DNA of 64,000 bases, taken from the IMG/VR virus record IMGVR_UViG_2574180019_000006. One strand, 5' to 3'. Of this stretch, positions 15,565-60,771 are shown piece after piece (position 1 is the first letter of the stretch; the number at the start of each line of letters is the position of its first letter). The DNA is from a virus. Lineage: Duplodnaviria; Heunggongvirae; Uroviricota; Caudoviricetes. Both the position numbers and the translations under genes were made by a program. The notes under the pieces are model-generated. The model saw nothing but the letters and a program-made list of their open reading frames with translations. It did no database searches and was not told where the DNA came from.

Positions 15565-15619
15565 CCTGTTTCTGTATATATAAATAATAAGTAACTTATT
15601 AAATATATACGGAAGCAGG
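15565..15619. repeat. 55-bp element, copy 1 (exact duplicate at 51287-51341), containing near-palindrome ATAAGT-A-ACTTAT
   Basis: cctgtttctgtatatataaataataagtaacttattaaatatatacggaagcagg occurs identically at both loci. Confidence 0.7.
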
Positions 15620-51286: not shown

Positions 51287-51341
51287 CCTGTTTCTGTATA
51301 TATAAATAATAAGTAACTTATTAAATATATACGGAAGCAGG
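51287..51341. repeat. 55-bp element, copy 2 (exact duplicate of 15565-15619)
   Basis: Identical sequence upstream of the 51458 gene. Confidence 0.7.
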
Positions 51342-58365: not shown

Positions 58366-59141
58366 AAACATATTGATAAGTATTTACTTACTTATCTTTT
58401 GTGTATAAGATGACTTTGTTTTCGTTGAGACGCGACTGTTTGAACTTAAATACAAGTGCAAACGAAGAAGTCTATCTGGCAGTAGCCTAATAAGCCAAAC
58501 ACCAGCGAGGTCAGTTTCCAGCCTCGTTACCGAAATGGGACACACTGAGCGAGTGTGATTGCAGAACGCAGGAGGGAACATGAATGTTCCCTCCGATGAA
58601 GTAACAGAATGGGCGGTTGGTATATTTTCAACTCCATATGACTCCCGGATTCTTAGCCACTGACCGCCCATCCTGTTACGTCATTTTGTTCAATTATGTC
58701 GTTTATACTGGGTTAAAAAGCGGCGACGTAGCCCGGCTGGTATGGTTAGCCAGCACACAACGTTGAGGCCATTACATTTTTATCAATTCTAAGGTTCTAT
58801 TCACAGAGATACCGGCGAGCGTTGATATGTAACATGTTGGGCAAACATTCAATCGGAGTAGTGGCCTCAACGTTGTGAAGACAGGATTGTTGTGTAGGTT
58901 TAACCACTGTTGCCATTGGTGCCTGTTTTCACAACAAATGATTCCATACATCACATTGTATAAATTACAAAGTAGGTGCTGTCCTCAGAAACATCATCTA
59001 CTTAAAGATTTAGCCTTCTATTGAGCGAAGTCGAAAACGTCTGGCACTAACGAAAAGTGCAAGTAGCGGTGCGTTTCCTGGCAGAAACTAACACCGCCGC
59101 GATTGGCACTGTTGAGTAATAAATACTGTCAGTGCTGAATT

Positions 59142-59216
59142 GATGGTGTAGCTCAGCGGTAGAGCAGTTGGCTGTTAACCAACTGGTCGGTGGTTCGAAT
59201 CCACCCACCATCGCCA
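59142..59216 (+). tRNA. tRNA-Asn (anticodon GTT)
   Basis: Cloverleaf folded by hand: 7-bp acceptor GATGGTG/CACCATC, anticodon loop CTGTTAA, T loop TTCGAAT, encoded CCA. Confidence 0.85.
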
Positions 59217-59218
59217 AT

Positions 59219-59294
59219 GCCGGTTTAGCTCAGTTGGTAGAGCGCCTGCCTTGTAAGCAGGATGTCAGCGGTTCGATCCCGTTAACCGGCACCA
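59219..59294 (+). tRNA. tRNA-Thr (anticodon TGT)
   Basis: Acceptor GCCGGTT/AACCGGC, anticodon stem CCTGC/GCAGG with loop CTTGTAA, T loop TTCGATC, encoded CCA. Confidence 0.85.
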
Positions 59295-59614
59295 ACACAA
59301 CAGGTAAGAGCATTGGGCGAATCGGCGATACTGACCCACAAGGCCGTAAATCGATAGAGTCAGACCAGTGCTCTTACCGTTGTGAGGAAGTGCAGCTCTT
59401 TGAAGCAACCAGAAGATAAGCATCTGGCTTCACAACACAACGATAAGATCATTACGGTTAATCGTCGTTCATGTGCACAATGACTGGTCGAAAGGTAGTG
59501 ATCTTACCGTTGTGATGAATGCACAGGCTGATGTGCCGCAACTACAGTAGTGCGCGCTTTGCGGGGCTTGCTACAACCCTGTGTCGGAGTTCAGCACCGA
59601 CCATCACAATAGCT

Positions 59615-59701
59615 GGAGAGTAGGGAGCATGGTGCTCAAGCGGTCTTGAAAACCGTCCCATTGCGCAAGCGATGATGGTTCGATTCCATTACTCTCCGCC
59701 A
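59615..59701 (+). tRNA. tRNA-Ser (anticodon TGA), class II with long variable arm
   Basis: Acceptor GGAGAGT/ACTCTCC, anticodon arm CGGT-CTTGAAA-ACCG close to the E. coli tRNA-Ser arm I recall, T loop TTCGATT; D-arm is irregular. Confidence 0.6.
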
Positions 59702-59850
59702 GACACAGCGTTGAGCGGTTTGGCCTTTTAATCAACTCGATTAAGACTCCGCTAACATAAACCAGACCGCTCAACGCTGTGATAGACAATTACGGCAGAC
59801 GTTCTTAACCATAGCTTGCTAACATCCTAGCAACACTTTTTTCAGCGCAA

Positions 59851-59878
59851 AATCCAAAGGGGCTTCGGCCCCTTTTTT
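59851..59878. terminator. terminator hairpin flanked by A and T runs
   Basis: aaaggggc-ttcg-gcccctttttt at the 3' end of the minus-strand gene 59881-60771. Confidence 0.6.
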
Positions 59879-59880
59879 GG

Positions 59881-60771
59881 TTACTGATTATCTAGGTATG
59901 CTGTTAACTCATTTTTAATGATCAGTGAATATTCTAAAATCTCACCTAGTAAATACTCTGCTTTTTTAAAATGCCACCCCATAGAGCCTAATTTTTCTGA
60001 AGGTCTTTCTAACAACATTATAATATCGCTGTCTTGCTCTTTGGCAATGTATTGTCTTATTTCTCTCTCCCAATTATTTCTTGTCTTTCCACTTATTGAT
60101 GATTCATCCAAAACTTTGTTTATAAACTTTTCCGTGTCGGCGAACTTTCCTGCATTATGCACAATTGTATGTCTTAGCAACTCAATTAGAGTGATCTCGA
60201 AACGATAGTTTTTACCTATCTTGTTATTTATTTCTACGTCTCTGAAATTGGGTAATTTTCTTCTAAATACTTTCAGGAATGTTTTTAGTGATTTATTTTT
60301 TATCGCCTCGTAATAGGTTTCCATAGCTCCATTTTTATCAATCTGAACCTTTGGAAATTCACTAGGTGACCAAAAATGGTAATGTATGCTCACTGTATGG
60401 GCATATATTTTCTTAATATAATCTTCAAACAATTCAAAAGCTTCAGTTATAACCCATTGATATTGTTTGTTTTTTAACGCTTCGCATAATTTTATCTTCT
60501 CTGAGATATCTATTGTGCTATGCCCAATTCCAAATGTTGAACCTGTATATGGATTTGAGCATGTATGGTTTGTTAACGTTGTCCCGCATGTTATTGGGGG
60601 GGTATTATTAGCATCTAGAGTTTGTGCGTTTTCAAGTGTATGCTTAAATCGCTTTATGTTGTCTTTCGTTGTAACATTTATATGACCTAACAAGTCACAA
60701 CGCAAAATTATTTCGTTTCTTAATTCAGTGAATATGTTTTCAACAAAAGAACCTAGCGGGTTTTCAATCAT
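59881..60771 (-). CDS. hypothetical protein (296 aa), possibly HEPN-like
   Basis: AT-rich compared with flanking DNA; single Rx4H motif (LLRHTIVHNAG); no recombinase motifs. Confidence 0.5.
   Translation of the reverse strand: MIENPLGSFVENIFTELRNEIILRCDLLGHINVTTKDNIKRFKHTLENAQTLDANNTPPITCGTTLTNHTCSNPYTGSTFGIGHSTIDISEKIKLCEALKNKQYQWVITEAFELFEDYIKKIYAHTVSIHYHFWSPSEFPKVQIDKNGAMETYYEAIKNKSLKTFLKVFRRKLPNFRDVEINNKIGKNYRFEITLIELLRHTIVHNAGKFADTEKFINKVLDESSISGKTRNNWEREIRQYIAKEQDSDIIMLLERPSEKLGSMGWHFKKAEYLLGEILEYSLIIKNELTAYLDNQ

Follow-up and report, generated by a model that had tools for sequence, protein, structure and literature searches.

A conserved family of long-stem RNA hairpins among the tRNA genes of an SSU5-like phage-plasmid: candidate processing sites in a noncoding operon

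Organisation of the locus

The window analysed here is the 64-kb stretch (64,000 nucleotides) of the Caudoviricetes virus record IMGVR_UViG_2574180019_000006 (IMG/VR). Judged by sequence identity it is an SSU5-like phage-plasmid, because the region around the hairpins described below shares 96–98% identity with the Escherichia phages CMS-2020a and Cyrano, compared to about 80% with Salmonella phage SSU5. The subject of this work is a family of five related long-stem hairpins (H1–H5), all located on the strand of the transfer RNA (tRNA) genes and within one operon. The noncoding stretch that contains them (58366–59883) also carries three tRNA genes, a shorter hairpin (H2b), a module resembling the tag region of transfer-messenger RNA (tmRNA) and an intrinsic terminator (Table 1). 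The tRNA-bearing segment is common to phages P1, P7 and D6 at 85–95% identity. The terminator is the only one in the noncoding stretch, with three weaker + strand matches falling in coding DNA outside it, and a convergent open reading frame (ORF) on the − strand starts at 59881. A scan of the + strand between 56000 and 59880 found no sigma-70-like promoter.

Table 1. Features of the noncoding operon in the window. Bits are scores of the family covariance model unless another model is named; z-scores of folds are relative to 200 dinucleotide shuffles.
Feature	Position	Strand	Details
tmRNA-tag-like RNA module (outside the hairpin family)	58418–58597	+	conserved 5′ end GTTTTCG..GCGAC
Tag frame	58458–58487	+	GCA AAC GAA GAA GTC TAT CTG GCA GTA GCC = ANEEVYLAVA; TAA TAA at 58488–58493
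Perfect 11-bp hairpin closing the tag module	58571–58594	+	arms 58571–58581/58584–58594; −17.9 kcal/mol, z = −5.6
H1	58596–58684	+	inverted repeat 58596–58617/58663–58684, 22 nt, 91% complementary; 29.2 bits
H2	58756–58877	+	inverted repeat 58756–58775/58858–58877, 20 nt, 95% complementary; 50.8 bits
H2b, shorter hairpin GTTGTG..CACAAC	58872–58935	+	arms 58872–58885/58922–58935, 14 nt, 93% complementary; z = −3.9
tRNA-Asn(GUU)	59142–59216	+	ARAGORN; Rfam tRNA model 75.5 bits; encoded CCA
tRNA-Thr(UGU)	59219–59294	+	ARAGORN; Rfam tRNA model 73.1 bits; encoded CCA
H3	59296–59384	+	upper helix 59303–59316/59365–59378, 14 nt; 51.2 bits
H4	59433–59517	+	inverted repeat 59433–59455/59495–59517, 23 nt, 87% complementary; core 59436–59514; 49.3 bits
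Leader between H4 and tRNA-Ser	59518–59614	+	97 nt, conserved; begins ATGAATGC, ends CCGACCATCACAA
tRNA-Ser(UGA)	59615–59701	+	ARAGORN; class II; encoded CCA
H5	59704–59781	+	20 bp; −41.2 kcal/mol, z = −9.8; 51.1 bits
Intrinsic terminator	59856–59883	+	8-bp GC-rich stem, then T run; scan match at 59856–59875; closes the + strand operon

Structure of the hairpins

The stems of H1–H5 are 19–22 bp long and close loops of 39–82 nt. A first-pass annotation of the window had listed four of these hairpins, and inverted repeats and folding place all four at or within a few bases of where it had put them; its dimensions (stems of 16–20 bp, loops of 45–90 nt) give way to the measured ones, and it missed the fifth member, H5, which follows tRNA-Ser. 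Folds of the + strand for these four hairpins range from −31 to −48 kcal/mol (z from −4.1 to −6.8), and in no case did one of the 200 shuffles reach an equally good fold. In a global fold of 58400–59890 all five main stems retain 19–20 expected pairs. An inverted-repeat scan (loops of 20–140 nt) finds arms of at least 20 nt only in this 1.2-kb stretch of the 64 kb, and the matches of the family covariance model in the window are H1–H5 only, all within the same 1.2 kb. Intrinsic terminators were considered as a class for the hairpins and rejected, given loops of this length and the absence of a T run after the stems.

The core of H1 (58601–58679) is of the GTAACAG..CTGTTAC type; at a distance of 8 bp from its base it contains an A.C mismatch. 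The loop of H2 (82 nt, closed by a 20-bp stem) contains conserved sub-hairpins. In H3 a bulged A, located 7 nt from the base, separates the upper helix from a CACAAC/GTTGTG base. The shorter hairpin H2b shares 6 nt with the 3′ arm of H2 and is not matched by the family covariance model; it is kept with compensatory changes in the SSU5, Klebsiella and Cronobacter relatives. A hairpin of this kind had been noted before at 58887–58937; it exists, but its arms span the positions in Table 1, and it is lost in the global fold.

Covariation and strand

The alignment contains 49 distinct members from the window and 40-odd related loci, each cut to its two arms and a few loop bases. The arm consensus is CACAAC(A)GKTRAGRNYAYTGG with its complement, and the base of the helix keeps CACAAC(A)G / CGTTGTG. 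H1 is a GTAACAG variant, joined to the other members through intermediate forms in P1 and D6. The helix ranges from 19 to 25 bp across the family (19–22 bp in the window, up to 25 bp in relatives), and the most conserved part is the base of the stem, not the loop. A bulge or A.C mismatch recurs 7–9 bp from the base, as does a U.G pair at position 17–18.

In the 21-pair stem, 96.4% of the cells are in standard pairs, compared to 75.3% when the letters of the 3′ arm are shuffled and 35–52% when the partners are slid by one to three columns; as members were chosen by hairpin formation, the percentage paired is inflated. Both sides have changed in 17 of the 21 pairs (covariation score 0.63 vs 0.23). 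Comparisons between orthologues are not affected by a collection that requires a hairpin, and their compensatory differences are not inflated. For eight full-length orthologues of H2, RNAalifold gave the same 19-pair stem with three pairs changed on both sides, and for eight of H5 a 20-pair stem with two such pairs; the remaining stem changes in both sets are mostly to G.U. The arms of H5 are GCGTTGAGCGG/CCGCTCAACGC in the window and GCGCTGAACGG/CCGTTCAGCGC in pHCM2 and Enterobacter plasmids. The mismatched position of H1 is A.C in the window, G-C in SSU5 and A-U in two Escherichia coli relatives (L003, L012).

An A.C mismatch on one strand is a G.U pair on the opposite strand. Read on the tRNA strand, the alignment of 49 members has 76 G.U cells against 14 A.C cells, or 48 against 10 distinct contexts (binomial p ~5e-7 by contexts, the events being not fully independent), and the pairing is 96.4% on the + strand compared to 90.1% on the − strand. 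One collection script accepted G.U on the oriented strand, a possible source of bias; a strict-complement scan gave the same loci. The structure is RNA and is transcribed together with the tRNAs, since the bias of G.U over A.C and the operon context (promoter scan, terminator) agree on the + strand. The suggestion of the first-pass annotation that pairing preserved despite divergence reflects selection on RNA structure is borne out: the paired fraction, the double changes, the compensation between orthologues and the wobble bias strongly support the view that the pairing of H1–H5 is under selection as RNA structure, and conserved pairing at homologous loci, whose absence it had named as a refutation, was seen in the orthologue comparisons.

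Distribution of the family

The same family is found at matching positions in pHCM2, pMT1 of Yersinia pestis and plasmids of Klebsiella, Enterobacter and Cronobacter. Orthologues of the H1–H2 region occur in 766 plasmid records (Klebsiella, Escherichia, Enterobacter, Yersinia, Salmonella, Citrobacter, Cronobacter), including pHCM2 of Salmonella Typhi and pMT1 of Y. pestis, and 937 plasmid records match the H3–H4 region. In P1, P7 and D6 the C1-controlled ban operon contains several members. Scanning viral contigs for the pattern yielded 27 loci, the majority SSU5- or P1-like and some lambdoid, and members are also located in the tRNA clusters of virulent phages. The phage groups that carry members are only 72–80% identical. 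Published RNase III data exist for E. coli K-12, but its prophages Qin, DLP12 and Rac, searched with the family covariance model, contain no member, and an exact-pattern scan of one genome per species gave no match.

No Rfam family reaches its gathering threshold for any hairpin of the window or of the P1, lambdoid and virulent-phage loci, and the same holds at permissive thresholds; the sub-threshold matches are of chance level and microRNA type only. Curated families, including C4 antisense RNA, DicF, YrlA and STnc100, were rejected for the hairpins on this ground. No description of the family was found in Rfam, in the annotations of the fetched records or in the literature searched, which did not include the P1 genome paper, so that an earlier mention is possible. 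Judged by these searches, the family is unannotated; it is widely conserved in enterobacterial phages.

In the Phapecoctavirus DE16, a virulent myovirus, tRNA-Asn and tRNA-Thr are followed after 2 nt by a family hairpin and then by a homologue of H4, whose loop (GATTGATCGTCGT..TGTGCACAAGG..CTCGAAAG) is conserved while the arms differ from those of H4 by compensatory changes. The siphovirus Bas81 has the same loop as hairpin 1 of DE16, with GGGCA/TGCCC replacing GAACA/TGTTC in the arms, and the Ounavirinae phage SUSP1 (Suspvirus) has a loop in common with the lambdoid copy L043a, again with different arms. Within the orthologue sets the motif AAGACTCCGC is invariant across the eight H5 loops, as are CACAGAG and the ATGTNGGG..ACAT sub-hairpin in the H2 loops. 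Loops kept between distant phages while the arms covary, invariant loop motifs and the T-arm-like hairpins that some P1 loops carry (P1_b, P1_c and P1_d, described below) would all be expected of autonomous structured small RNAs with their function in the loops, which could bind protein or RNA or act as decoys for host tRNA-directed or defence factors. The long stem would then serve only stability and defined ends, and the adjacent tRNAs would be processed without it. An analogy is offered by phage T4, whose tRNA cluster encodes the stable RNAs known as ‘species 1 and 2’. However, the loops of paralogues within one operon are entirely different, the base of the stem is more conserved than the loop, the close abutment to tRNA ends would be left unexplained, and no target or partner could be identified with the tools used. 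We regard a function in the loops as possible but on the doubtful side; it is the main rival of the processing role proposed below and partly compatible with it.

Module content varies between close relatives, and the junctions fall in shared motifs. H3 is missing from both Cyrano and CMS-2020a CP053388; Cyrano is without 59295–59613, and at the junction its two alignment blocks share 10 nt; in CMS-2020a CP053388 the block overlap is 21 nt. The tRNA content among the relatives is Asn-Thr-Ser, Asn-Tyr-Thr-Ser, Asn-Ser or Asn alone, and the same arm types are found with different loops in unrelated phage groups. These differences would be consistent with a role at the level of DNA, where the hairpins would be palindromic cassette boundaries, similar to miniature inverted-repeat transposable elements (MITEs), and their shared ends CACAAC/GTTGTG would promote recombination and so shuffle tRNA and noncoding RNA modules between phages. 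Against this, the strand asymmetry of the wobble pairs is unexpected for a DNA palindrome, and the copies have diverged and compensated, unlike near-identical active MITEs or REPINs. There are no target-site duplications visible in the flanks, and no copies elsewhere in the window, in Qin, DLP12 or Rac, or in the exact-pattern scan; recombination at the shared ends may also be a by-product of their conservation. A DNA-level role is thus improbable in our estimation. The mobile palindromes of the MITE/REPIN type were rejected as a class (five copies within 1.2 kb, arms that differ at 17 of 21 positions, no flank duplications). Integron attC sites were rejected as well, as ACACAAC / GTTGTGA depart from RYYYAAC / GTTRRRY and the wobble bias points to RNA; no integron context was seen in the annotated relatives fetched.

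Some copies are located beside phage control elements. In the lambdoid contig L019 a family hairpin lies about 12 nt downstream of a pL-like promoter, beside cI, and in another lambdoid contig one lies between the repressor and a recE-like gene. In an E. coli chromosome (prophage L043) two copies directly follow the tR′ terminator, within the noncoding stretch from Q to the holin gene. Together with the P1 copies in the C1-controlled leader of the ban operon, the L019 and L043 copies could be taken for cis-acting transcription elements, either pause or attenuation signals or put-like antitermination RNAs that enable read-through of the long noncoding leaders of early and late phage operons. 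We think this very unlikely: the stems have no following U tracts, the hairpins also occur in virulent-phage tRNA clusters without such a regulatory setting, there are several tandem copies with no similarity to HK022 put or to nut sites, and no cis-regulatory Rfam family was matched.

In pMT1 (L013 1761–2795) the F1 capsule locus (caf1R, caf1M) starts 14 nt past the H2 orthologue and replaces the tRNA-Asn block of other SSU5-like plasmids. As the caf locus occupies the place of this block, the noncoding RNA island appears to be its insertion point in pMT1.

Position relative to other RNAs

H3 starts 2 nt after the CCA of tRNA-Thr and H5 starts 3 nt after that of tRNA-Ser. Across the loci, the hairpins that follow tRNAs begin 0–3 nt past the encoded CCA or share bases with it; junctions of this sort are of at least seven independent types. 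Junctions abutting the CCA (of tRNA-Asn, tRNA-Ser or tRNA-Thr) are also found in Klebsiella, Cronobacter, Enterobacter, pHCM2, CMS-2020a, D6 and DE16. In SUSP1 one hairpin ends 3 nt 5′ of tRNA-Arg.

Several members contain traces of tRNA structure. The P1 hairpin P1_b has a canonical T-arm (GGGTTCGAATCCC) beside its 3′ arm and an acceptor-like inner stem, GGGTATT/AGTACCC. The loops of P1_c and P1_d carry the T-arm-like hairpin GGGKTCATATCCC, and the Klebsiella/Cronobacter homologue of P1_b has a degraded copy of the same T-arm. These features suggest that at least some members may descend from tRNA-like genes, with the acceptor helix extended by leader–trailer pairing. Taken further, the T-arm and inner stem of P1_b and the degraded arm of its homologue might mark the whole family as decayed relics of tRNA or tRNA-like-domain genes that are functionless now. 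We give this almost no credence, as 19–25 bp of pairing have been kept by repeated compensatory substitutions across groups of 72–80% identity, and neither ARAGORN nor the tRNA model scores any hairpin. Purifying selection on the stems having been seen, the idea of a relic survives for the origin of the family only. A present-day tRNA or tRNA-like gene was rejected as a class: ARAGORN and Rfam call only the three tRNAs in the window, and the P1 hairpins, even P1_b, are uncalled.

A separate tRNA-like 3′ fragment is located right after the family hairpin of L019 (6990–7060). It consists of an anticodon arm with CCU, a T-arm (GCGGGTTCAACTCCCGC) and then CGCCCGACCA; it has no 5′ half and ARAGORN gives no call.

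The tag-like module upstream of H1

A helix of the module encloses the stop codons of the tag frame and two small hairpins follow downstream. The perfect stem at 58571–58594, described in the first-pass annotation as 10 bp and grouped with the hairpins, is present with 11 bp and belongs to this module. Its position is kept in the SSU5, pMT1 and Klebsiella relatives, in which the stem forms from a different sequence. In the window and nine homologous loci the tag is conserved at the codon level as AN[DE][DEN]x[YF]LAVA, or with the ending ..MAA or ..VAA (homologues: ANEDTYLAVA, ANDNQYLAVA, ANEEMYLAVA, ANDNTFLAVA, ANDNAFLAVA, ANDDLMMVAA, ANDDVVLMAA). Changes among the codons are synonymous and conservative, with a hypervariable fifth codon. 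In several homologues an in-frame stop is located eight codons upstream of the tag, with no ATG, GTG or TTG between.

The homologue of the module in an E. coli prophage matches 758 phage records at 72–94% identity, including HK620, P1, Kuttervirus, Felixounavirus and relatives, the siphovirus Bas81 and Klebsiella phages; among the matches listed, the stretch is unannotated or lies under hypothetical ORFs only. Rfam aligns it to the tag region of tmRNA in every phage tested, at 14–31 bits against cut-offs of 47–84. The scores in the window are sub-threshold (tmRNA_permuted 14.9 bits, beta_tmRNA 14.4 bits), and those in other phages are 22–31 bits. ARAGORN called no tmRNA at the module. Searches for an acceptor 3′ strand, a T-arm or a CCA partner of the module gave none, and a 3′ partner for the GTTTTCG 5′ end beside a T-loop was likewise not found, either downstream or elsewhere in the window. 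Of the two domains of a tmRNA, the module has the mRNA-like one (resume codon, short tag frame, stops), whereas the tRNA-like one (acceptor with G3.U70, T-arm, CCA) was not recognised. In appearance it is a tag-encoding derivative of tmRNA with no tRNA-like domain that could be recognised. Two surveys of tmRNA name only mycobacteriophages and Bacillus phage G as phages bearing ssrA (PMC4131195, PMC11915505), and no description of the module was found in the literature searched.

In every phage examined a hairpin is located downstream of the module. Where the module lies inside a late operon (E. coli prophage L043, HK620) a family hairpin also lies immediately upstream of it. In SUSP1 and Bas81 the module has no hairpin upstream and has its own promoter-like site, TTGACA-17-TATAGT (11/12) and TTGACA-17-TAGATT (10/12), respectively. 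A possible weak promoter in the window, TTTACT-17-TAAGAT at 58383–58411 (8/12), was sub-threshold in the promoter scan. It ends 7 nt 5′ of the GTTTTCG start, a spacing like that of the strong SUSP1 and Bas81 promoters.

The presence of the module in hundreds of phages raises the question whether phages tamper with trans-translation. The hairpins may be parts of a modular phage noncoding RNA system, composed of a tmRNA-derived tag RNA without a tRNA-like domain, tRNA-derived hairpin modules and phage tRNAs, that would redirect host ribosome rescue or counter tRNA-targeting defences. Its carriers would be the P1-like, SSU5-like and lambdoid temperate phages and the virulent FelixO1-like phages (Ounavirinae), Kuttervirus, Phapecoctavirus and siphovirus Bas81. 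We consider a system of this composition and range unlikely, although worth stating.

Neighbouring sequences

The best Rfam match of tRNA-Ser is tRNA-Sec at 44.6 bits, which does not reach the cut-off of 47. The leader in front of it is close to the P1 version, although the flanking hairpins diverge; 59497–59608 of the window is 95.5% identical to P1 (L004 1962–2073), and related stretches also follow hairpins in L026 and L043. The 5′ end of the leader (TTGTGATG) is able to pair with its own 3′ end (CATCACAA), and 59574–59585 is able to pair with 59702–59713 across tRNA-Ser, a pairing that would compete with the 5′ arm of H5. Rfam gives no match for the leader in the window. STnc100 was rejected as an assignment for it, the match being sub-threshold, seen in P1 only and absent in the window, L043 and HK620.

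Small ORFs overlap the hairpins on both strands and were treated as spurious, since the annotated counterparts in relatives (plp, CYRAN_40) overlap tRNA genes. In P1 (NC_005856, L004 1629–2198) plp and upl are annotated on the other strand from the hairpins, and plp overlaps tRNA-Thr. In Cyrano (L001 2419–2631) CYRAN_40 is also opposite the hairpins and overlaps both tRNA-Thr and tRNA-Ser. All three are probably spurious calls over RNA genes.

Elsewhere in the window, two identical copies of a hairpin, CCTGTTTCTGTATATAT..ATATATACGGAAGCAGG, are located at 15565–15619 and 51287–51341, 35.7 kb apart. A close variant is found in a Cronobacter plasmid (L014 138–200). This hairpin is unrelated to the family of the tRNA region.

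Proposed role of the closing helices

We find it plausible, while holding the view tentatively, that the closing helices are double-strand-specific processing sites of the RNase III type that punctuate a polycistronic precursor of tRNAs and small RNAs. The transcript would be a single long noncoding precursor, with the tag-like RNA followed by hairpins, tRNA-Asn and tRNA-Thr, further hairpins, tRNA-Ser, a last hairpin and the terminator. Host RNase III or an equivalent enzyme would cut the helix of about 20 bp and thereby separate the adjacent RNAs. With a helix that starts at the CCA, neither RNase E nor 3′ exonucleases would have a single-stranded trailer to act on; a cut inside this helix would produce a short trailer and free the 3′ end of the upstream tRNA, which exonucleases could then trim back to the CCA. 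The upper stem and its loop would be set free by the same cut, as a discrete small, perhaps stable, hairpin RNA. Cleavage, the enzyme and a function of the released loop RNA are what we infer here.

RNase III of E. coli acts on helices of about two helical turns. The hairpins of the family have intramolecular helices of about 20 bp or more, and the stems are kept in the global fold. A processing role accounts for the length of the hairpins, their strand, their placement and their covariation, and also for the alternative of a promoter or a hairpin upstream of the tag module. The roles suggested in the first-pass annotation, RNase III sites or small RNAs, would both fit an anatomy of stems of about 20 bp that abut mature RNA ends.

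Several observations weigh against processing as the role, or at least as the only role. RNase III needs neither a conserved sequence at the base of the helix nor loops conserved across distant phages, so that the conserved base and loops of the family suggest additional or other functions. The recurrent bulge or A.C mismatch 7–9 bp from the base and the U.G at 17–18 are not accounted for. H1 and H2 are 460–540 nt from the nearest tRNA, and the paired fraction is inflated by the choice of members, as mentioned above. In a CRISPR interference screen of P1, the genes annotated over the hairpin region were non-essential (PMC10695390), which fits an accessory role and lends no support to processing. 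Small-RNA sequencing of Y. pestis reported no small RNA (sRNA) at the pMT1 copies of the hairpins, although the operon may be silent under those conditions; the two sRNAs reported on pMT1, sR082 and sR083, are unrelated to the hairpins (PMC3770706).

If the helices are processing stems, they would account for the maturation of phage tRNAs and small RNAs out of long operon leaders, and could provide portable “punctuation” parts for the expression of RNA arrays. The covariation of this RNA family is unusually clear, and neither Rfam nor the annotations inspected include it. It occurs even in the model phage P1, its copies there lying under the opposite-strand ORFs plp and upl, as well as in the medically relevant pHCM2 of S. 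Typhi, pMT1 of Y. pestis and Klebsiella phage-plasmids. About 1.5 kb of conserved noncoding RNA genes are at present left empty by annotation or filled with spurious ORFs.

Comparison with known systems

The tag module shares with tmRNA (SsrA) a GCA resume-like codon after an A-rich AUAAAU stretch, a ten-codon tag that starts with AN(D/E) and ends in two small hydrophobic residues, one or two in-frame stops within a helix, and a 5′ segment resembling ..UUCGAC... It differs in that the tag ends in LAVA, not LAA.

STnc100 and PasD are prophage Hfq-dependent sRNAs. A stretch of P1 (L004 2237–2356) that follows a family hairpin, and sits between this hairpin and tciA, matches STnc100/PasD (RF02076) at 33.4 bits and begins GGTGAATGC, like the stretch after H4. 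This match is under the gathering score of 47 and has no counterpart in the window, L043 or HK620.

With the REPIN, BIME, ERIC and MITE elements the hairpins have in common units of 80–120 bp, terminal inverted repeats of about 20 bp, a variable centre, several copies and the possibility of forming RNA hairpins. The family differs from them in that it is confined to phage noncoding RNA islands, has diverged with compensation, has strand-specific wobble and lacks target-site duplications.

The T4 tRNA cluster contains species 1 and 2 (rnaC, rnaD), structured RNAs of about 100 nt that are co-transcribed with the tRNAs and dispensable in the laboratory. The members of the family, likewise small structured RNAs among phage tRNA genes, would resemble them in general type, and they differ in being defined by a 20-bp closing stem with a CACAACG base.

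RNase III processing stems are known from the E. coli rRNA operons, where they enclose 16S and 23S rRNA with spacer tRNAs, from sites R1–R5 of the T7 early region and from the hairpin of the lambda N leader. In general anatomy these sites resemble the family, being imperfect helices of about two turns between functional RNAs of a long precursor, on the sense strand and without U tracts. The hairpins of the family differ in their conserved base sequence, their conserved payload of 39–82 nt and their start 0–3 nt from the CCA. Overall, the nearest counterparts of the family are these processing stems of RNase III and the stable RNAs encoded among the T4 tRNAs. It departs from both in that its base sequence and payload loops are conserved and its modular distribution is wide.

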